DNA from: Candidatus Magasanikiibacteriota bacterium
GTDB taxonomy: Bacteria; Patescibacteriota; Patescibacteriia; Magasanikbacterales; GWA2-37-8
Direction of reading: 5' to 3'
Assembly (NCBI GenBank): GCA_023246655.1
Contig: JAHFHX010000001.1
Coordinates: 28,648-92,647, forward strand
DNA: 64,000 nt
Positions 5,134 to 58,649 of the stretch are shown here, piece after piece. The notes below the pieces were generated by a model that worked only from the letters and a program-made list of their open reading frames with translations, was not told the origin of the DNA and did no database searches. The position numbers and the translations under genes are program-made. Numbering within the stretch: position 1 is the first letter of the stretch; every line of letters begins with the position of its first letter.

Positions 5134-6393
5134 CTAATCCGTGAACACCACGCCCATGTTGAGGGCATCCTTGGCGCCGTGCACGAGTCTTCCGCGGCAG
5201 GCTGTCACCACCGCCTCGGCCGGGGAACGCTCGATGAAGTACACCACGAGGCGCGTGAAGCGCTCGTCCGTCGTGAGCTCCCCGTTCGCGTTGTAGTGCC
5301 GGAATTCCCGCTGGCGCCCCTTGAGCTCCCGCTGGAGGATGTAACGCCCACTGGAGCGCTGCGCTGCGTGGAGCGTGTCCTCAAACCTCGAATCATCCGA
5401 GAAGGCCACCCCCTTCGTCCCCGCCGAGATGGTCTCCTTGAGTACGTAGCGCTCCGTCAGGTTCGGGAGGGCGCCGTGCCGGGTCACGAGGTGGGTTTCC
5501 GGGAGATGCTGCCGGATCGTCTGGAGGGACTGCCCGCTCATCTGGGAACGGAGAATCGCTTCGATGTCGGCGTCATTCCCCGGGTTGCTGAGGATGGCGA
5601 GCAGGTTTTTCGAGCCCATGAAGGGCTTCGGCGGCATGAGGAACTTGATCTCGCCCTTCCGGTAGAGGTCGGCGAGGGCGTCGGTGAGGCGCGGGTTCTC
5701 GGTCATCACGGGGAAGTTCACGAGGGTACGCGTCGTCTCGCGCTCGCCGCGGATGATGAGATTCTGTCCGTCGACCGCCGTCTCGATCTCGTCGGCGACG
5801 ATGAGCTCGACCCCAGCGCTTCGGAGCGCCTGCCGGAGGATGTGAAACTCCGGGAGGTAGAAGCGCTCGCGGTGGCCGTAGAGGAAGACGAGCTGATCGA
5901 GGCCGCGCTTTTTGATCGCCGTCCCGAGACTCGTCCTGATCCCCGGGAGCGTGCTCGCGCCCGGGTTCACGGCCTCACGGATGGCGGCAAAGAGGGTCGC
6001 GTAGCCCATGGCCCGCCGGTTCATCGCGTCGATCTCGGCGATCCACAGGTGTCCCGCGGCGTCTTCCACGAAGTCAACCTTCACGATGAGCGGCGTCGTC
6101 GAGGGCTTCAGGAGCTGGAGCTCCCGGTGCGGCCGCGGCACCTCCATCGCGACAGCGTTCTTCAGGAGATCCCAGGTCTTGCCCGGGGCCAGCTCCCGCT
6201 GGTGGGCGATGGTCGCGATCCGCCCGAGGCCAGCGAGGCTCTCGGTGATCGCGGGGCCCAGGTGCTCGAGCTCCGTCCTCGCGCTCATGGGGAGCGGGAA
6301 GACATCCGGGGTGAGCAGGAAACCGTGCGTTTCCCGCCGTCCGCCGTCCCAGATACCCGATTCAATGACGATCTGTTCAATGAGCCTGTACAT
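5134..6393 (-). CDS. GC-rich (approx 62-65% GC) hypothetical enzyme, possibly ATP-grasp / glutathionylspermidine-synthase-like amidoligase; likely horizontally acquired
   Basis: 419-aa ORF with protein-like composition. The opposite-strand ORF 5122..6531 is an R/E/L-rich shadow. AAGGA sits ~6 nt before the ATG at 6393. The segment SKNLLAILSNPGN resembles the SNKxxLxxLW segment of GspS-like ATP-grasp proteins, but family assignment is tentative. A terminator hairpin follows at 5100-5130. Composition differs strongly from the AT-rich flanks. Confidence 0.55.
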   Translation of the reverse strand: MYRLIEQIVIESGIWDGGRRETHGFLLTPDVFPLPMSARTELEHLGPAITESLAGLGRIATIAHQRELAPGKTWDLLKNAVAMEVPRPHRELQLLKPSTTPLIVKVDFVEDAAGHLWIAEIDAMNRRAMGYATLFAAIREAVNPGASTLPGIRTSLGTAIKKRGLDQLVFLYGHRERFYLPEFHILRQALRSAGVELIVADEIETAVDGQNLIIRGERETTRTLVNFPVMTENPRLTDALADLYRKGEIKFLMPPKPFMGSKNLLAILSNPGNDADIEAILRSQMSGQSLQTIRQHLPETHLVTRHGALPNLTERYVLKETISAGTKGVAFSDDSRFEDTLHAAQRSSGRYILQRELKGRQREFRHYNANGELTTDERFTRLVVYFIERSPAEAVVTACRGRLVHGAKDALNMGVVFTD

Positions 6394-7053
6394 GGTTGTG
6401 TCCTTGCAGTGAGTTGTGGAAACGATTGTCGCTCGTTTCCTTGTTCGTCAGGTTTATACCCTGAAAGGTGTTCTCGTCACATTTCAAAGTACAAAAAACC
6501 CTGCGGTGGGCGCAGGGTAGAGTACAAATAAAGTGTACGCTAATAGTACCCGGCGCCAGTGGTGAGCCAGTTCCAGGCAAAATAATAAGTTGTGGGCAGT
6601 TGTGAGAACATACGTTATATAATAATACTGAGGATTGCAGATAGGTATTCTATGATAAATGTTGGTTGTTCATGAGGGCATTGCGGTTTTGTTATAAAAA
6701 ATAAACCGCCCGATGACTCGGGCGGTTGGTTTAGTAATTTTGTTATCAATTACAAAATTCACCACTCGAGCAAAGAGGGCAGGTGGTACGACCAAAACAG
6801 TGTAATAGAGTGGTGAGAAAATTTCATACAGTTTAAGAATAGTAGTATCGTAATGTTATTTATTTTTTCAGTCAAGCTAGAGTTGTTGATAACTTTATTT
6901 TAAGTATCAATAATGCCGTGGCGTTGAGAACCAATATTTTTTTGTGCCACCTGCTGCCAGTTGTTGGATATTTTATTTTTCCTTCGCAACATCACCAATA
7001 ATCTTGGCGATGTAGTAGAAGGGGAGAGGCGAAATTTTTTCACCTCTCCGCGG

Positions 7054-7127
7054 GGCCCCAGGGCGGATTTGAACCGCCGACTCGCAGATTTTCAGTCCGC
7101 TGCTCTGCCAGGCTGAGCTACCGGGGC
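7054..7127 (-). tRNA. tRNA-Phe (anticodon GAA)
   Basis: The reverse complement folds as a cloverleaf: acceptor GCCCCGG/CTGGGGC, D-arm GCTC-AGCCTGGCA-GAGC, anticodon stem GCGGA/TCTGC with loop CTGAAAA (anticodon GAA), T-arm GGCGG-TTCAAAT-CCGCC. CCA is not encoded. A hairpin at 7021-7050 follows the 3' end. Confidence 0.9.
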
Positions 7128-7187
7128 GGGAGACTTGGGGAGTCAGGGCCGCACGCGTTGCACGCGCGGCGCTGACATCCCGGGGGG

Positions 7188-7337
7188 TCACCGATCGGCG
7201 GCAGGAGGGGGCGCGACCGGACTCTTGCGCCGCCGCGGGGGCGGCAGTTCGAAGGGGTCCACGTGGAATTGTGGATCCTTCTTGATAGGGGGGTTCCCAG
7301 CGGGGGGCTGGGACGGGGGTGCCGGGGTGCGTTCCAT
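7188..7337 (-). CDS. small proline-rich ORF (49 aa) in GC-rich patch
   Basis: ATG 7337..7335 is preceded by AAGGAGA at a 7-nt spacing. Encodes MERTPAPPSQPPAGNPPIKKDPQFHVDPFELPPPRRRKSPVAPPPAADR. The listed 91/100-aa ORFs in other frames lack ribosome-binding sites. Speculative. Confidence 0.3.
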   Translation of the reverse strand: MERTPAPPSQPPAGNPPIKKDPQFHVDPFELPPPRRRKSPVAPPPAADR

Positions 7338-7914
7338 GCGCGTTTCTCCTTACCCCCTTGTAAGCGGGGGTTTGCCAAAGAGTCTCTCAGCACGAGAGGC
7401 GATTGACGCTAGTGCATCGCACGCTATCTCTTGCTGATTATTCTATTTGTCAAAATGAGTAATACGATATCCCGAGTGAGTCGGGATTGTTAACGTCGGC
7501 ATCGAGCTTCGTCCGCCTTTGGCGCACTCGCTCTCCGCTCGTCGTTAACAAAAAAACCGCCCGAAGCTCGGGCGGTTTGGAAATTTGTGTTATTTAGCAA
7601 CCACAAGTTCCACCGCCTGAGCCAGGGGAGGTAAAGTAGAAAAAGAAAACTTGATTTAAGCGGTTGGAATTCATAATATTTAAATGGTAGCACAGGTTGT
7701 TTCGGTAGTCAAATGGAACCTTGTGGATAAATAAAAATTGCGTTATACTGTAGGGTATGGAACTGGTACTAAGTTATTGTAATAAAGCCTCGTAGAGAGT
7801 GGTTTTCTTGCACCCAAACCCCGCTGTGGCGGGTCGTAATGGGCGCCGCGAAAATCACTCTCTATTTCGGCCCAAATTAGATAAAAATTAATGATAATTT
7901 AATACCTACCTTAT

Positions 7915-9075
7915 ATGCAATTTTCTTCCTCAATACCTATTGAACCCTCCGCCACCCTTACCATCAATAGTAAGGCTTTGGAAAAAAAAGCTCGGGGGGA
8001 GCGGGTGTACAACCTTAGTGCAGGCGAACCGATGTTAGCACCACACCCAGCAATTGTAGAGGGGGCACTTCAAGCGATGCACGCTGGCAAAACCTTATAC
8101 CCGCCGGTCGCTGGCATACCAGAACTGCGCCAGGCTGCTGCCCAATGGATGCGCACAACGTATGGTACTTGGTTTGAACAAAAAAATACTTTGGTAACGT
8201 GCGGTGGTAAATTTGGTATTTTTGCTTTATTAGAGGCGTATCTACAACCAGGCGATGAGACGTTGATCATTGCGCCGTATTGGGTTTCGTATCCACAACT
8301 TGTCAAATTATTTGGTGGCGTGCCACGAATTATCCAAACCGAAGAAAAGAGTGGTTGGAAAATTTCCATGAGCGAACTTAAAAAGATTGAGACTAAGATT
8401 AAGATTTTGATATTGAATAACGCCGCCAACCCAACTGGTGCTGTGTACACTCGTGAAGAATTAAAGAATATTCTTGGCTGGGCGAAAGAAAAAAATATTA
8501 TCGTCATCTCTGATGAAGTGTATAGCGGCCTGGTGTATGATGGAGCGGAATATGTTTCCTGTGGCTCGTTCCCGGAGCACCAAGACCACGTTATTGTTAT
8601 CCAAAGTTGTTCCAAACATTTTGCCATGACTGGTTGGCGCGTTGGATTTGTATTCGCTCCTGAGGAAGTTATAAAAGTCCTTACCATGCTCCAGAGCCAG
8701 AGCACCACGGGTACGTCATCCATTAGTCAATGGGCAGCATTGGCGGCTTTGGAGCATGCTACGGAGATTATTCCAACTGTTCGCCAAGCTATGGAGCAGA
8801 GGCGTGATATTTTTATTAAGACATTCGCGCAATTATTTGGCATTACTCTATCTGTTCCAGCCTCCGCATTATATATTTTTATTGCTATGCGTCATTTGCA
8901 GTTAACTCATTCCGACTCAGTGCAATTTTGTAGGGAATTGATTGAAAAAGCCAACATTGCCCTGGTACCGGGTGCCGCGTTTGGAGCCGAAGGGTATGTG
9001 CGAGCGTCATTTGGGGCAGATGCGAACGAGCTTTGCGAATCACTGCAGGCCGTGGCAGTTTATTTACAGAAATAA
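7915..9075 (+). CDS. pyridoxal-phosphate-dependent aminotransferase, class I/II (aspartate aminotransferase-like)
   Basis: NAANPTGAVYTREEL and the PLP-lysine region SCSKHFAMTGWRVGF, ~386 aa. Confidence 0.85.
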   Translation: MQFSSSIPIEPSATLTINSKALEKKARGERVYNLSAGEPMLAPHPAIVEGALQAMHAGKTLYPPVAGIPELRQAAAQWMRTTYGTWFEQKNTLVTCGGKFGIFALLEAYLQPGDETLIIAPYWVSYPQLVKLFGGVPRIIQTEEKSGWKISMSELKKIETKIKILILNNAANPTGAVYTREELKNILGWAKEKNIIVISDEVYSGLVYDGAEYVSCGSFPEHQDHVIVIQSCSKHFAMTGWRVGFVFAPEEVIKVLTMLQSQSTTGTSSISQWAALAALEHATEIIPTVRQAMEQRRDIFIKTFAQLFGITLSVPASALYIFIAMRHLQLTHSDSVQFCRELIEKANIALVPGAAFGAEGYVRASFGADANELCESLQAVAVYLQK

Positions 9076-9214
9076 ATTTGAGGAAAAAAATATCCCGACT
9101 CAGTCGGGATATTTTTTGTTCCTTTATTGGCAGAAGGATACCAACAAAGGAACGGACGGAACGACGGACTCCGCGCCGAGTTGCGCGGTGTCTGCCGTTC
9201 CGTAGGTGGCGGGG

Positions 9215-9556
9215 CTATGCCCGCAAGCGGTTGCGGCGGCGATACTCCTGCGTGCGCCGCCGAGAATCAATTCGCGCCCAAAGCGACCGGATGGCTTCGA
9301 GCTCCTGCTCTTCGCGCCTGGCGCGCTCAATGCCCTTCCAAATCCTCTCGCGGCGACCGTTGTCGCTCGTCCGCCGGAGCAGGTCGACGAGGTGCATCCG
9401 TCGGCGGTGCACCGCGACGGAGCCGTTGTGCAGGAGATGCTCAATCTCCTGGCGATGTCCAAGACGCAGCGCCGCATGGAGCGGTCTGTGCCCGGGATAG
9501 AGCAACTGGGCGCTACGTATTAGCCGCCCGTAGCGTACGTCATCAAGGACAGGCAT
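9215..9556 (-). CDS. GC-rich small protein (113 aa) with a single ankyrin-like repeat and Arg-rich tail
   Basis: The ATG at 9556 is preceded by AAGGAGAAGG at a 7-nt spacing. The segment YPGHRPLHAALRLGHRQEIEHLLHNGSV fits the ankyrin consensus G-TPLH-AA--GH---V--LL--GA. It lies in a GC-rich patch at 9120-9560. The opposite-strand Arg-rich ORFs are shadows. Confidence 0.4.
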   Translation of the reverse strand: MPVLDDVRYGRLIRSAQLLYPGHRPLHAALRLGHRQEIEHLLHNGSVAVHRRRMHLVDLLRRTSDNGRRERIWKGIERARREEQELEAIRSLWARIDSRRRTQEYRRRNRLRA

Positions 9557-9818
9557 TCGCCTTCTCCTTGTTCAATTTTTGTTGTGTGCTCCGCGCACTT
9601 TTTACATCCCTAGGTTCCCAGGATGGCTAGCTGTTCTACACGGGGTAGACACGGAGTTGGCTAGCAAAGCAAAACACGCCACTCTACTAGTCCTTCAAAG
9701 TACTATTAGGGTAGTTTGTCTTAACCTTGGCCTAGCTTAGCAGAAAGTAGTTGGCTTTGTCAATAAAACGCCAATATGTTAGGATAACTCTTACTAAACC
9801 TTACGTAAGGTACATTTT

Positions 9819-10922
9819 GTGTTTAAACCATTTTCTTATCAATTTTACCGCACCACTAAAGAAGCTTGGGATGCTATGTATCAGGCTATTTTGGATGCGA
9901 CTAAATCTATTTATTGGGAAATTTATATTTTTATTGATGACGAGGCTGGAGGTAGGTTTATTGATGCGTTGTGTGACAAAGCTCGGGCTGGGGTTGAGGT
10001 AAAAATTGTGGTCGATGCTTTGGGTAGTTGGGGGTTGTCGAGCTTAGCGGAAGCGCGCCTAACCGGGGCGGGGGTAGAGGTACTTAAATATAATCGTTTG
10101 CACCCAGAATTAGCTTTGGGTCGTTGGTTTAATCGTCTGTGGCGGCGTAATCATCGTAAACTGCTTATTCTTGATGAAGAGGTCGCTTTTATTGGCGGAG
10201 TGAATGTCGAATCAAAATCTTTACTATGGAATGATTTATTTCTTAAACTTACGGGAGTCGTTGTTTGGCCACTCTTAAAGAGTTTTGCCAAAACATACGT
10301 GGCCGCGGGAGGTGATCGTCGCCGTGTGCGTCATTTGCGTCGATCACGTTTGCCGGAAGGGTTAGAAACGTTGCAGCGAAAAATTGAGTTTATTATTCAT
10401 TCGCCGTTTGGGAATAATCGTTCGCTGGTACGTAAGATGTATTACCGGAGTATTGCGGTGGCCAAAGAAAGTATTAATGTGTTGACGCCTTATTTTGTTC
10501 CAGATCGAGCCCTGATTCGATTGTTGACTCAAGCGCGTCGGCGGGGTGTAAAAATTAATTTGTTTTTACCGCAACGGCCGGATCACCAAATTATGGAATG
10601 GATTGCGCGCGCTTATTATGGCATTGTCCACCGTGCCGGAGTAAACATTTTTTTATCCAAAAAAATGAACCATGGCAAGGCCATGACCATTGATAATAAA
10701 TCCGGTTTTGTAGGGAGCTCTAACATAACCCCGCGAAGCTGGTTTATTAACGAAGAGGCTGGGGTATATTTTGACGATGCGGAGATGGCTGAGGAGTTGA
10801 ATACACTTTTTGCTCAATGGCAAACCGAAGCCGAGCCGCTTAATTTGGAACGCTGGAAAAAACGGGGGTGGCGGAGCAAAGCAAAGGAATGGTGGGCGAA
10901 GAAGATTGAGAAATATGTTTGA
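9819..10922 (+). CDS. cls: phospholipase D family protein / cardiolipin synthase-like
   Basis: Two HKD motifs: HRKLLILDEEVAFIGGVN and HGKAMTIDNKSGFVGSSN. The start is uncertain: GTG at 9819 or a downstream ATG giving MYQAIL. Confidence 0.85.
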   Translation: MFKPFSYQFYRTTKEAWDAMYQAILDATKSIYWEIYIFIDDEAGGRFIDALCDKARAGVEVKIVVDALGSWGLSSLAEARLTGAGVEVLKYNRLHPELALGRWFNRLWRRNHRKLLILDEEVAFIGGVNVESKSLLWNDLFLKLTGVVVWPLLKSFAKTYVAAGGDRRRVRHLRRSRLPEGLETLQRKIEFIIHSPFGNNRSLVRKMYYRSIAVAKESINVLTPYFVPDRALIRLLTQARRRGVKINLFLPQRPDHQIMEWIARAYYGIVHRAGVNIFLSKKMNHGKAMTIDNKSGFVGSSNITPRSWFINEEAGVYFDDAEMAEELNTLFAQWQTEAEPLNLERWKKRGWRSKAKEWWAKKIEKYV

Positions 10923-11044: not shown

Positions 11045-12349
11045 ATGTTAGAAGAAAAAAGATTACAATCAAATACTCCTTTAGCCGAGCGAATGAGACC
11101 TTGTTCATTTAACGAGTTTGTTGGTCAAGTCGATATAGTTGGGGAAGGGAAGCTCTTGCGCAAACTCATTGAGAATGATGAATTGTCCTCAATTATTTTT
11201 TGGGGTCCGCCGGGAGTAGGAAAGACTACGCTAGCGCGTATTATTGCAGAAGAGACGAAGGCGCGGTTTGTGGCGTTGTCCGGAGTGATGAGTGGGAAAG
11301 ATGATTTGCGGAAAGTGATTGAAGAAGCGCAAAGTGGAAAATCACAAATCCCAATTTCCAATGACCAAATAAATTCCAAATTCCGAGTTCCAAATCAAAC
11401 CCGGACCATTCTCTTTATTGATGAAATTCACCGCTGGAATAAGGCGCAGCAAGATGCACTGCTCCCCTATGTGGAACAGGGAATTGTGACGCTTATTGGC
11501 GCTACGACCGAGAATCCGTCGTTTGAGATTATTGGCGCGTTATTATCTCGATCGCGAGTGTTTATTTTGAAGTATTTGACGACCGAGAATATTGTTGTGC
11601 TCTTGAAGCGGGCGCTCGCCGATAAAGAAAGGGGATTAGGAAATTATAAGATTGAGATTGAGAATGAGACTTTGGAAATACTCGCGGAGCTTGCGGGTGG
11701 GGATGCGCGGGTGGCTTTGAATGGGCTCGAGTTGGCATTTAAATCGAAAGTCGGAAAGTCCGTAAAGTCTCTAAAGTCACCAATTGTAATTACAAATCAG
11801 GAAATAAAACAAGCGTTGCAGCGAACACATTTAGTGTTCGATAAAAAAGGTGAAGAATTTTATAACCTCATCTCCGCACTCCACAAATCCATGCGGGGGA
11901 GTGATCCCAATGCCTCGCTTTATTGGCTCGCACGAATGCTCGAGGGTGGTGCTGATCCTTTGTACGTCGCTCGTCGTATCCTGCGGTTTGCGAGTGAAGA
12001 TATTGGTATGGCCAATAGCGAAGCTATGATACAAGCGAATGCAGCGTATGATGCTTGCCACAAAATTGGGATGCCAGAGTGCACGGTGCATTTGGCTCAG
12101 GCAGTGGTATACTGTGCCAAATCCGCAAAATCAAATTTGTTATATAAAGCCTATCAGGCAGCAGCGAAGGATGCTCGAGAAACTTCTCAACTTGGGGTGC
12201 CAATTCATTTGCGCAACGCACCGGCAAAATTTATGGAGGAGATTGGATATGGAAAAGACTATAAGTATAATCCGGATTATGATGAACCGATAGAACAGGA
12301 TTATATGCCGGAGGAGTTGAGAGGAAGAAACTATCTTAAGAAGAAATAA
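11045..12349 (+). CDS. rarA: replication-associated recombination protein A (AAA+ ATPase RarA/MgsA)
   Basis: Walker A GPPGVGKTTLARIIA and Walker B ILFIDEIHR, plus the C-terminal MgsA helical domain. Start taken at ATG 11045 (MLEEKRLQSNTPLAERMRP). Confidence 0.88.
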   Translation: MLEEKRLQSNTPLAERMRPCSFNEFVGQVDIVGEGKLLRKLIENDELSSIIFWGPPGVGKTTLARIIAEETKARFVALSGVMSGKDDLRKVIEEAQSGKSQIPISNDQINSKFRVPNQTRTILFIDEIHRWNKAQQDALLPYVEQGIVTLIGATTENPSFEIIGALLSRSRVFILKYLTTENIVVLLKRALADKERGLGNYKIEIENETLEILAELAGGDARVALNGLELAFKSKVGKSVKSLKSPIVITNQEIKQALQRTHLVFDKKGEEFYNLISALHKSMRGSDPNASLYWLARMLEGGADPLYVARRILRFASEDIGMANSEAMIQANAAYDACHKIGMPECTVHLAQAVVYCAKSAKSNLLYKAYQAAAKDARETSQLGVPIHLRNAPAKFMEEIGYGKDYKYNPDYDEPIEQDYMPEELRGRNYLKKK

Positions 12350-12640: not shown

Positions 12641-13657
12641 TTAGAAATCTTTAACGCTAATTTTTCTCTCCTCCCTCTCCCCATGCTCCAACGCAATCTT
12701 AATCACCCGTTTCCTTTTTAACAATCCCTCAATTTTCTCCGGCCATTCTACAATCGTCACGGTGTCTAACTGGCCCAAGTAGTCTTCTACGCCAATATTG
12801 AGCAATTCCTGCTCGTTTTTTAACCGGTACGTGTCGATATGTACCAACCTGTTAATTGTTAATTGTTTATTATTAATTTGGTACACATTCATTAGCGTAA
12901 ACGTCGGACTGGTAATTTCTTCTTGCACTCCTAACCCTGCCGCAATTCCTTTCACCAGGGTCGTTTTTCCCGCACCCAGTTCGCCGTAGAGACAGACAAC
13001 ATCCCCGGCTCGTAATTCGGTAGCGATTTTGGTTCCAACATTTCTAGTCTCTTGATCGGAGTGAGTGGTAAAAATTCTGCCATTTTTTTTCCGCTCTGAC
13101 CTTAAAACAAGTATAGCGATAGTGCCACTGATGCCAACCATTGCGAGAGGATAGATAGCGACAGCAAAATTCCATTGATTAATGGCAGCAAGGTTAAGCA
13201 AATTACCCAAGAAGAATAATGCCCAGGGCAAACGCCTCTCTCCTGTTGGATTGAGATATACTTTTTTTACCGTGGGGAGAGCTCCTAAACAATCAATGAA
13301 TAGATTCACCAGGAGCGCGGATAACGGTGAGCGAGTCGCTGCCCAGAGAGGGATACTTAGGGCACTCCCGGCAAGGCACCAGCGATCTAATCGTGCCCAG
13401 CCACCTTCACCATACCACAGTGACGCCAGAAACACAGCGCCGATACCAATGACATCTCCAAGCGGAACCCAAATGGTTTCATGTTGCGGTGTGGAGTAAT
13501 AATAACTGGAGAGTAAGAGTAATGATTCTAACATCCAAATTCCCCACCCTGCCCGATTCGGTCGCATTTGTTGGCGTACGGTAGCAAAAAAATAGGTGCT
13601 AAGCGCTATGAGATTCAAAATACCAGCTGCGATACCAATAATTGTTTTTGTTTCCAT
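12641..13657 (-). CDS. tsaE: tRNA threonylcarbamoyladenosine biosynthesis protein TsaE fused to an N-terminal ~190-aa multi-pass membrane domain
   Basis: The C-terminal half has the P-loop LYGELGAGKTTLVKGIAAGLGV, SPTFTLMNVY and HIDTYRL, all typical of TsaE/YjeE. The N-terminal half is hydrophobic with about six predicted TM segments. Confidence 0.75.
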   Translation of the reverse strand: METKTIIGIAAGILNLIALSTYFFATVRQQMRPNRAGWGIWMLESLLLLSSYYYSTPQHETIWVPLGDVIGIGAVFLASLWYGEGGWARLDRWCLAGSALSIPLWAATRSPLSALLVNLFIDCLGALPTVKKVYLNPTGERRLPWALFFLGNLLNLAAINQWNFAVAIYPLAMVGISGTIAILVLRSERKKNGRIFTTHSDQETRNVGTKIATELRAGDVVCLYGELGAGKTTLVKGIAAGLGVQEEITSPTFTLMNVYQINNKQLTINRLVHIDTYRLKNEQELLNIGVEDYLGQLDTVTIVEWPEKIEGLLKRKRVIKIALEHGEREERKISVKDF

Positions 13658-13742: not shown

Positions 13743-13836
13743 AAAAACATCCCGACTTAGTCGGGATGTTTTTAATTTTTTTCTCCTCGACTCTCCAGAA
13801 TCGTCCATTGCACAACTCTGGAGATTGGTCGAGGAG
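13743..13836. repeat. direct repeat copy A (terminator hairpin plus 55-bp hairpin unit)
   Basis: AAAAACATCCCGACTTAGTCGGGATGTTTTT followed by TTCTCCTCGACTCTCCAGAATCGTCCATTGCACAACTCTGGAGATTGGTCGAGGA. The 55-bp part is identical to the copy at 14672-14726. Confidence 0.85.
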
Positions 13837-13865: not shown

Positions 13866-14147
13866 TCAGAGGATGATGATGTAGAAGGTTGTGGTGCGGG
13901 GCGGCACATCGCAGTCCCTTGCGTCCGCTGCTGTGCGGGACAAGAGCAGGACGACATTTGCTAGTTCCGTCAGCGCCCAGCTTGCGGGGGAGAACACCGT
14001 GTCGCGGCATCCTCCATCATTTTCCCGCCAGCCAATGCCGGGGCCATCTGTGTTTGAGCCACTGTATTCCACTTTGCCGATGACCCTGCGGCCATCGGCG
14101 TGAATTTCGATGATCATGCAGCCGGGCAGAACCTTGCCGAGTTCCAT
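13866..14147 (-). CDS. GC-rich hypothetical small protein (93 aa)
   Basis: The ATG at 14147 is preceded by AAAGGAG at a 9-nt spacing. It lies in a GC-rich patch between the two direct repeats. The C-terminal extent is uncertain because the ORF runs toward the repeat. Confidence 0.4.
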   Translation of the reverse strand: MELGKVLPGCMIIEIHADGRRVIGKVEYSGSNTDGPGIGWRENDGGCRDTVFSPASWALTELANVVLLLSRTAADARDCDVPPRTTTFYIIIL

Positions 14148-14640: not shown

Positions 14641-14726
14641 AAAAACATCCCCATTGAATCGGGATGTTTTTTTCTCCTCGACTCTCCAGAATCGTCCATT
14701 GCACAACTCTGGAGATTGGTCGAGGA
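14641..14726. repeat. direct repeat copy B
   Basis: AAAAACATCCCCATTGAATCGGGATGTTTTTTT plus the same 55-bp unit as copy A. Confidence 0.85.
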
Positions 14727-14764: not shown

Positions 14765-15073
14765 CTAAAAAAACTCAGCCGCCTCGAGCCCGAAAATGGC
14801 ATCCACGAGCCAGGCCCAGCCGGTGGGTTCGGGCGGGAGCCAAACAGCCATCATCCGCCCTGTGCGGCTTAGCCGGAATTCCGTCCCGGCGGTGCCTCCC
14901 TGATAGACCTCGATGAGCGCCGCCTGCATCAGCTTGTAGCTGACTTTAGCGGCGCGCCGTTTACCCACGGCTTGCGTCGTGCGGCGGATGAACTCCGCCG
15001 TGTCGAGGCTGTCGTCGGGTGGGATAGTGAGCAGATCCCGCAGGATCGCTCGGTGCGGTTTTCTCAGTTTCAT
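14765..15073 (-). CDS. GC-rich hypothetical small protein (102 aa), weak resemblance to RelE/ParE-type toxins
   Basis: The ATG at 15073 is preceded by GGAGG at a 7-nt spacing. The C-terminal segment EFRLSRTGRMMAVWLPPEPTGWAWLVDAI loosely resembles the RelE/ParE core YRLRVGDYRIIY...LVVL.IGHR. No adjacent antitoxin is evident, so this is a low-confidence call. Confidence 0.35.
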   Translation of the reverse strand: MKLRKPHRAILRDLLTIPPDDSLDTAEFIRRTTQAVGKRRAAKVSYKLMQAALIEVYQGGTAGTEFRLSRTGRMMAVWLPPEPTGWAWLVDAIFGLEAAEFF

Positions 15074-32586: not shown

Positions 32587-32613
32587 ATAATCAGTAGAAA
32601 AAAACATCCCGAC

Positions 32614-33024
32614 TTAGTCGGGATGTTTTTGATTATCTAAAATTTTATTCACCTCCGCATCCGCCTCTTTGTTCCCGGCACGCATGGTGTGGCGATACGT
32701 TACTTTTTTAAATTGCGTGGCAGTGTTGTAGACCTGCATAAATAATTTTTGGAGTGTTGGCTCTTTCACTTTGTACTCTCCTCGCATTTGTTTTACGATC
32801 AGTTCGCTATCGAGTACGCAGTGAACTTCGGTCGCACCAAGCTCTTTAGCTTTTTTGAGAGCAGAAATAAGGGCCGAGTACTCAGCAAAGTTATTAGTTT
32901 GGTGCCCCAAATATTCGCCATAGTGCGCCAGCACAACGCCCGCCTCATTTTTGATAACAATGCCAGCGGCAGCTGGCCCCGGGTTGCCACGCGCTCCGCC
33001 ATCGGTGTGGGTGATTAATTTCAT
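32614..33024 (-). CDS. rnhA: ribonuclease HI
   Basis: THTDGGARGNPGPAAAGIVIK and the catalytic E/D/D/H pattern (EYSALISAL, HCVLDSELIVKQ, GNKEADAEVNKIL), ~136 aa. Confidence 0.88.
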   Translation of the reverse strand: MKLITHTDGGARGNPGPAAAGIVIKNEAGVVLAHYGEYLGHQTNNFAEYSALISALKKAKELGATEVHCVLDSELIVKQMRGEYKVKEPTLQKLFMQVYNTATQFKKVTYRHTMRAGNKEADAEVNKILDNQKHPD

Positions 33025-58457: not shown

Positions 58458-58649
58458 TTCAATTTCTGGTATGTATTTCACAAAGCTTAAAAATATTTTG
58501 CAGAAAAATAAACTATTTTTTATTTTGGTGATCGCTAAGCATTTTAGATAATAAACGTTTTTAAAATAACTTATCCACAATCCCGACTCAGTCGGGATTT
58601 TTTGTTGTACATTAGCCAAAATTACGTAGATATTTTTTGGTGTAAAGTG

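Follow-up and report, generated by a model that had tools for sequence, protein, structure and literature searches.

In the genome of a Candidatus Magasanikiibacteriota bacterium, a short GC-rich patch separates an aminotransferase gene from a gene for a cardiolipin-synthase-like protein. What does this DNA encode, on which strand, and how did it come to lie among housekeeping genes? We analyzed it within a window of 64,000 nt (contig JAHFHX010000001.1 of assembly GCA_023246655.1, positions 28,648–92,647), and all coordinates below are those of the window. The answer we prefer, with a probability of about 0.5, is that the patch is a horizontally acquired gene cassette of ~420 bp and that its minus-strand open reading frame (ORF), orf113, is a real gene. 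The elements on which this reading turns are the following.

9154–9570, no strand: GC-rich segment, the putative cassette proper, 65.7% GC, spanning a GC-rich 3′ hairpin, the ORF and the ribosome-binding site.
9215–9556, minus strand: orf113, ATG start, 113 aa, TAG stop; predicted to be all-helical.
9564–9569, minus strand: Shine–Dalgarno site AAGGAG, 7 nt before the orf113 ATG, within AAGGAGAAGG at 9569–9560.
9416–9499, minus strand: ankyrin-like repeat, residues 20–47 (YPGHRPLHAALRLGHRQEIEHLLHNGSV), the only part similar to known proteins.
9221–9361, minus strand: C-terminal Arg/Glu-rich long helix, residues 66–112, from the predicted structure.

The composition of the patch is foreign to the host. 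A preliminary description of this DNA had reported ~440 bp of GC-rich sequence just past the aminotransferase terminator, and the measurements bear it out: the GC fraction over 9120–9560 is 0.642 (64.2%) against a window mean of 0.447 (44.7%), ~3.8 standard deviations higher (standard deviation 0.051 in 441-nt windows). The fraction peaks at 0.68 over 9153–9496, and both sides of 9154–9570 drop to 33–42% GC. Directly before the patch are the aminotransferase gene (7915–9075; Pfam Aminotran_1_2, E = 9e-69) and its terminator hairpin (9085–9117). The cardiolipin-synthase-like gene (9819–10922; PLDc_2) begins 250 nt past the patch and points away from it. The compositional analysis that the preliminary description had proposed shows the same departure from the host. 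GC content at third codon positions (GC3) is 0.75 in orf113 and 0.26–0.52 in host genes, and the relative synonymous codon usage of orf113 correlates with that of the other GC-rich genes of the window (r = 0.44–0.60), not with that of host genes (r = −0.03).

So abrupt a jump in composition, in a segment without relatives, is also what one would expect of a chimeric assembly or of contaminating DNA from some GC-rich organism. The patch was, however, found in four contigs assembled independently from four samples (ERZ27276474, ERZ27280021, SRR14366783 and SRR14366787), two from ENA and two from Logan assemblies, made by two pipelines. Three of the four span both junctions at 99.9–100% identity, with one end in the aminotransferase gene and the other in the cardiolipin-synthase gene; the fourth starts within the 3′ hairpins of the patch and confirms the cardiolipin-synthase side only. 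Just two mismatches separate the contigs from the window, both inside the aminotransferase gene, and the patch is identical in all four. The junctions also coincide with the boundaries of gene signals, a terminator on one side and a ribosome-binding site on the other. With four concordant independent assemblies, an artifact is excluded for all practical purposes.

Whether the patch is coding, and in which frame, is a harder matter. ORF length is worthless as coding evidence here, because five of the six frames of the patch are open and a stretch of 100 aa or more is open in 72% of its dinucleotide shuffles. Low GC content at the second codon position is typical of coding DNA, and orf113 has GC contents of.74,.47 and.75 at positions 1, 2 and 3, with the minimum at position 2. 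The sole other frame with a position-2 minimum is its exact antisense, ORF 9206–9523 (plus strand, 105 aa;.76,.48 and.74). A longer plus-strand ORF, 9127–9630 (167 aa;.70,.67 and.51), has its minimum at position 3, the reverse of a GC-rich gene. The positions of these minima exclude 9127–9630 and leave orf113 or its exact antisense.

Between these two, several features favor the minus strand. The preliminary description had placed an ORF with a ribosome-binding site at 9215–9556, and both are present: orf113 starts with ATG behind an AAGGAG at −7, while the antisense frame starts with GTG and has no ribosome-binding site. Proline and glycine together make up 8% of orf113, compared to 15.9 ± 2.6% in null ORFs of the same DNA (fraction at or below this value, 0.0009) and 17% in the antisense product. 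AlphaFold2 run without an alignment gave orf113 a predicted local distance difference test score (pLDDT) of 82.4 and a predicted template modeling score (pTM) of 0.64; the antisense product, with values of 39.1 and 0.24, models as disordered. The ankyrin-like motif, the sole similarity to known proteins, is present in the orf113 frame only. Correlation of codon usage was not used for the choice, the two frames being close in this measure (r = 0.60 for orf113 and 0.57 for the antisense). Minus-strand orf113 is thus the favored, best-supported coding frame.

The public annotations disagree on this point. For the parent contig of 159,913 bp, the NCBI record annotates the region with the 167-aa ORF 9127–9630 on the plus strand, starting with TTG, whereas the ENA and Logan calls give orf113. 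That the real gene lies on the plus strand, as this 167-aa ORF or as the 105-aa GTG ORF 9206–9523, is most improbable. Apart from the NCBI annotation, which carries exactly the 167-aa product, it could draw on a terminator-like hairpin with a T5 run on the plus strand (9584–9598) and on the position-2 minimum that the 105-aa frame shares with orf113. Yet the 167-aa frame has its minimum at position 3, starts with TTG, and lacks both a ribosome-binding site and a Pfam match; the 105-aa frame lacks these two as well, its null-like proline and glycine content and pLDDT of 39 adding to the case against it. A plus-strand gene would, moreover, begin within or just past the aminotransferase terminator. 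The NCBI call at 9127–9630 is probably a mis-call on the wrong strand. The preliminary description had also named the outcome that would overturn its choice of strand, namely conservation of the opposite frame; no full-length relative was found and no frame can be demonstrated to be conserved, and it is the antisense product that models as disordered.

The orf113 product is an orphan protein. It comprises 113 residues (13.75 kDa, isoelectric point 11.7), among them 27 Arg, 1 Lys, 15 Leu and 9 Glu; arginine reaches 24%, compared to 16.2 ± 3.1% in the null ORFs. Helices are predicted at residues 4–19, 24–32, 35–62 and 66–112. A phmmer search run exhaustively against 1.84 billion representative proteins returned no full-length relative but the protein itself, and among 5.8 billion proteins it was likewise found only as itself. 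Family searches with NCBIfam and PADLOC gave no match, and a match in PHROGs fell short of significance (E = 0.25). At the DNA level, blastn in distant mode found no match to the patch in plasmids or phages, and viral contigs held no relative of orf113 or of two similar small ORFs of 102 and 93 aa described below. No donor or homologue elsewhere thus emerged from the protein, plasmid, phage and viral-contig collections searched. A tblastn match of a 117-aa minus-strand frame to Magasanikbacteria GW2011_GWA2_56_11 (35% identity over 48 aa) was rejected as compositional.

What links orf113 to known proteins is one segment in its N-terminal half. Residues 22–46 (GHRPLHAALRLGHRQEIEHLLHNGS) bear the repeat signature of ankyrin proteins (PF00023, designed ankyrin repeat proteins (DARPins) and bacterial Ank effectors), in the form G-x-(T)PLH-x-A-x-x-x-GH-x-x-(I/V)-x-x-LL-x-x-G, and the sequence given in the preliminary description, HRPLHAALRLGHRQEIEHLLHNGSV, corresponds to residues 23–47. 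In the same phmmer search, 75 large proteins other than orf113 itself matched at E ≤ 0.001, 74 of them through approximately residues 20–47 and usually repeatedly. All eight of these matches that were scanned against Pfam are textbook multi-ankyrin proteins (Ank or Ank_2, E = 1e-38 to 1e-159). A search of the PDB returned DARPins and ankyrin-R, at ~10 bits per single repeat and a per-stretch E of ~6. When the residues of orf113 were shuffled, 297 of 300 shuffled versions matched nothing in the set of ankyrin proteins, a target set that had been chosen by the real query. The ankyrin-like signal is not compositional, since the shuffles reach 21 bits at most, compared to 68 for the real sequence.

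Membership of orf113 in the ankyrin family is nevertheless not established. The check proposed in the preliminary description, HMMER against Pfam Ank, ended halfway between a hit and none: Ank (PF00023) matches residues 22–47 with 13.0 bits (E = 0.14), under its gathering cut-off of 21.1, and no match to Ank_2, Ank_3, Ank_4 or Ank_5 was reported at E ≤ 1 in the Pfam scan. Some BLASTP and phmmer alignments extend to approximately residue 70 with the spacing of a second repeat (for example, 39% identity over 49 aa to P0063), and in some of them residues 53–85 align with the start of the following repeat or with a C-terminal cap, with no signature residues. At the motif, the model predicts a helix, a tight turn and a second helix, as in ankyrin proteins, but the second helix continues to residue 62 as a long hairpin. 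The prediction as a whole is a generic helical bundle, not the L-shaped stack of helix-turn-helix units and β-hairpins that defines the ankyrin fold, and Foldseek returned nothing for the orf113 model at E ≤ 0.001. Ankyrin proteins stack at least two repeats, and a single repeat cannot fold alone (PMC8229355); orf113 has one clear repeat, and the other 60% of it is an unrelated arginine-rich helix. Small basic proteins that form four-helix bundles or helical hairpins, such as Rop or Avd, the accessory protein of diversity-generating retroelements, are counted among the nearest known systems too. Of the earlier proposal of an ankyrin-like repeat protein, what stands is one genuine-looking ankyrin-like motif at residues 20–47.

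The preliminary description had remarked that ankyrin repeats are typical of host-associated lineages. This fits the organism, a relative of Magasanikbacteria in the Candidate Phyla Radiation (CPR). The CPR is generally regarded as symbiotic.

Past the orf113 stop codon, the minus strand runs through a series of hairpins, and a short palindrome lies on the other side of the gene.

9156–9203, minus strand: GC-rich 19-bp imperfect hairpin, 12 nt past the orf113 stop, followed by UCCGUUCCUUUGUU on the minus strand.
9118–9153, no strand: second hairpin, with a stem of 15 bp and 42% GC, separating the GC-rich hairpin from the host terminator.
9085–9117, no strand: bidirectional intrinsic terminator with a U-run, common to orf113 and the convergent aminotransferase gene; a member of the ATCCCGACTNAGTCGGGAT palindrome family.
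9584–9598, no strand: short imperfect palindrome GTGTGCTCCGCGCAC in the 5′ leader of orf113, with T5 after it; terminator-like in shape on the plus strand.

The 135 nt past the stop codon thus consist of three contiguous hairpins (9203–9156, 9153–9118 and 9117–9085) with a folding z of −11.4. The hairpins at 9156–9203 and 9118–9153 are each unique in the window, and neither has an exact match in viral contigs; the former probably serves the cassette as a terminator of its own or as a stem that stabilizes the mRNA. Such folding raises the alternative that the patch is no protein gene and acts as a structured non-coding RNA or in cis as a regulatory element. Taken as a whole, 9118–9603 folds with a z of ~−5 on both strands, and a neighboring GC-rich patch at 7128–7450 folds with a z of −6.2 and has no coding periodicity. 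The signal comes from the three 3′ hairpins, however, and the body of the ORF reaches a z of only −0.73 in sense and −1.9 in antisense. No Rfam family matches at the gathering score, nor does anything meaningful appear at E ≤ 5, and the ORF has clear codon periodicity and protein-like features. We consider a purely RNA-level role very unlikely.

Upstream of orf113, the signals proposed in the preliminary description largely fell away. A palindrome is there, GTGCTCCGCGCAC at 9586–9598, but it has only 4 + 4 paired positions, or a 6-bp stem if G–T pairs are allowed, and the scan scores it as a terminator-like hairpin on the plus strand and not as an operator. For the promoter-like signals placed at 9585–9640, a consensus scan found no minus-strand σ70-like promoter in 9557–9813, the nearest lying at 9842–9814.

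The patch is not the only one of its kind in the window. Among 61 ORFs taken as genes, four are outliers in GC3, the other ORFs having values of 0.26–0.52.

5134–6393, minus strand: 419 aa, GC3 0.89.
9215–9556, minus strand: orf113, 113 aa, GC3 0.75.
13866–14147, minus strand: 93 aa, GC3 0.70.
14765–15073, minus strand: 102 aa, GC3 0.76.

All four are on the minus strand within 5–15 kb, interspersed with mostly plus-strand housekeeping genes (6PGD, G6PD, GDH, 6-phosphogluconolactonase, aminotransferase, cardiolipin synthase, MgsA, a TsaE fusion on the minus strand, GatC and GatA). In three of these ORFs the start codon follows a strong Shine–Dalgarno site (AAGGAG, AAGGAG and GGAGG), compared to a GGAG or GAGG core in just 5 of the 57 ORFs of host composition (Fisher p = 0.006; host starts taken as the first in-frame start). 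The scarcity of such sites in host genes is consistent with the loss of the anti-Shine–Dalgarno sequence in many Parcubacteria, in which the motif is undetectable in roughly half of the 16S rRNAs (PMC9297842); the 16S gene of this organism lies outside the window.

The layout of the 93-aa and 102-aa ORFs mirrors that of orf113, with a terminator palindrome, a long hairpin and a small GC-rich minus-strand ORF with a Shine–Dalgarno site. Next to each lies a copy of a 95-nt composite repeat (13743–13835 and 14641–14726), made of the terminator palindrome and a 60-nt hairpin that is 100% identical between the copies; each copy adjoins the 3′ end of one of the two ORFs, and viral contigs contain no exact copy of it. 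The homology search with the 102-aa ORF gave no relative, and the ORF has no Pfam or PADLOC match. For the 93-aa ORF, the search for relatives covered an exact look-up, which gave a one-member cluster, and viral contigs, which gave no match; Pfam and PADLOC had no match either. The terminator palindrome itself, ATCCCGACTNAGTCGGGAT, occurs in five copies in the window compared to zero expected (7467–7489, 9090–9112, 13747–13769, 32604–32626 and 58578–58600), three of which abut GC-rich patches. The idea that the aminotransferase unit between two of the copies (7467–9112) splits one larger GC-rich element was dropped because the palindrome belongs to a genome-wide family of five copies and the patch at 7128–7450 is partly conserved with L005, the locus of the closest relative.

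Horizontal acquisition of a functional cassette, our preferred reading, has to be weighed against decay. The patch could be a non-functional, decaying remnant of GC-rich foreign DNA, perhaps left from the end of a larger ankyrin-repeat gene, in which a scarcity of stop codons keeps the frame open. This is the main rival, possible if less than probable. The ease with which long frames open in this DNA, the single clear ankyrin repeat that could not fold by itself, and the lack of a homologue and of a promoter in the searches above all speak for it, as does the GC3 of 0.75, which is below that of the bona fide GC-rich 419-aa gene (0.89), as if the DNA had been partly ameliorated or degraded. A remnant, on the other hand, would hardly be expected to keep the complete set of gene signals seen here, with an optimally spaced AAGGAG at one edge of the patch and a hairpin and terminator at the other. 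Nor does it account for the strong depletion of proline and glycine and the helical prediction, neither of which is found in the antisense frame, or for the persistence of codon-position periodicity.

Several observations weigh against a functional, transferred gene. No homologue was found that would offer evolutionary evidence of selection on orf113, and the four contigs, being identical across the patch, offer no variation from which a ratio of nonsynonymous to synonymous polymorphism (pN/pS) could be computed. A high single-sequence pLDDT is weak evidence for a long helical hairpin, and an arginine content of 24% is partly expected of any ORF in GC-rich DNA (null, 16%). The consensus scan recognized no minus-strand promoter within 250 nt upstream of orf113, and the AAGGAG would be of no help to translation if the host ribosome has no anti-Shine–Dalgarno sequence. 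Signs of mobility are absent as well: there are no flanking direct repeats in 9040–9700 that could be a target-site duplication, and no integrase or other mobility gene is among the neighbors scanned (0–19 kb), all of which are housekeeping genes. A tRNA-Phe gene lies 2 kb from the patch, with the aminotransferase gene in between.

Nor does comparison with related genomes show the insertion. Scans anchored on the aminotransferase yielded 39 genome loci and 36 metagenome loci, with best aminotransferase identities of 72% and 62%, respectively, none of them informative on the junction. The closest aminotransferase, at 72%, is from the Magasanikbacteria genome Baikal-deep-G194, followed by Uhrbacteria and Magasanikbacteria genomes at 50–62%; the contig of this closest relative stops at the aminotransferase stop codon and does not cover the junction region. 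The other 74 loci, at no more than 62% identity, are not syntenic, with a cardiolipin-synthase gene near the aminotransferase gene in one only. None of the related loci fetched encodes orf113, and the patch is absent from these loci and from the DNA collections searched.

The same loci do contain GC-rich patches of their own (300–1800 bp), some with small ORFs of GC3 0.86–0.91. Two examples are L006 4692–5102 (minus) and L034 9159–9506 (plus), with GC3 of 0.91 and 0.86 and no Pfam match; at L016, a 306-aa Cys-rich ORF (11338–12258, minus; GC3 0.72) is convergent with the aminotransferase gene. Compositional mosaicism seems to be common in this Magasanikbacteria- and Uhrbacteria-like clade.

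If the patch is a functional cassette, it would comprise a ribosome-binding site, a minus-strand ORF of 113 codons and its own GC-rich 3′ hairpin, set into a Magasanikbacteria (Patescibacteria/CPR) genome with the aminotransferase terminator on one side and the divergent cardiolipin-synthase gene on the other. Transcription may start in the 250-nt host-side intergenic spacer, where no consensus promoter was found, and would end at the stacked hairpins, which could also shield the 3′ end of the mRNA. The N-terminal half of the protein would form one ankyrin-like helix-turn-helix, after which a degenerate second repeat may come, and the C-terminal half a long Arg/Glu helix. Such a protein might act as a small binder: its ankyrin-like face could contact a partner protein or other copies of itself, and its arginine-rich helix could contact nucleic acid or some other polyanionic surface. 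This specific binding mechanism is doubtful. A broader proposal, that the four minus-strand GC-rich orphan minigenes near terminator palindromes reflect repeated capture from a GC-rich host bacterium or mobile element and that orf113 is an oligomerizing ankyrin-like effector or anti-defense protein, is more speculative still and, on the present evidence, unlikely; were it true, the single ankyrin-like repeats of orf113 would stack by oligomerization.

Orphan genes of atypical composition are already known from CPR genomes. Horizontal transfer and small islands are documented in Patescibacteria of New Zealand groundwater (PMC12455944), and orf113 shares with the transferred genes described there its atypical GC content and codon usage and its position as an orphan among core genes. 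Its environment, too, is probably that of the groundwater study: the samples with the window belong to the same SRR143667xx accession series as a sample with the nzgw350 Magasanikiibacteriota contig, from a New Zealand groundwater genome. Unlike those islands, the putative cassette is far smaller (one gene, ~420 bp), has no mobility genes, tRNA-flank integration or direct repeats, and has a Shine–Dalgarno site of the kind mostly missing from host genes. The putative cassette also resembles integron gene cassettes in that it is small, has a long imperfect hairpin directly behind an orphan ORF with no apparent promoter, and has like-built siblings nearby. Here, however, the hairpin bases, read by eye, have no RYYYAAC or GTTRRRY core sites of attC, the units are scattered between housekeeping genes and not arranged in an array, and no integrase occurs among the neighbors to 19 kb; an integron cassette was rejected on these grounds.

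Three other features of the neighborhood were recorded. The 419-aa gene (5134–6393, minus) has no Pfam, NCBIfam or PADLOC match and belongs to a family found in Patescibacteria only, at 33–52% identity. It is GC-richer than the surrounding genome in five of five contexts, with a HAD-like hydrolase gene adjoining in three, a pattern that is odd for a simple recent transfer. The patch at 7128–7450 (68% GC, immediately 5′ of the tRNA-Phe gene at 7052–7127, minus) has no coding periodicity and no Rfam match and folds with z values of −6.2 on the minus and −4.2 on the plus strand. Its right part, together with 7543–7754, is 72–76% identical to DNA upstream of the L005 aminotransferase gene; the patch possibly represents a conserved leader or non-coding RNA. 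In the TsaE fusion (12641–13657, minus), TsaE (Pfam, residues 199–333) is joined to an N-terminal extension of ~190 residues, which, from a reading of the translation by eye, resembles a multi-pass membrane domain.

What is mildly new at this locus is the likely wrong-strand annotation, the cassette layout shared with the sibling ORFs, and the link between GC-rich minigenes and Shine–Dalgarno sites in a genome otherwise poor in them. The apparent wrong-strand call illustrates how GC-rich inserts are mishandled by gene finders whose training genome is low in GC and poor in Shine–Dalgarno sites. If real and folded, a 113-residue protein with a single recognizable ankyrin-like unit would test the rule that at least two repeats are needed. 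The minigene cluster could, if its donor is identified, point to the host or the mobile elements of an uncultured episymbiont lineage.

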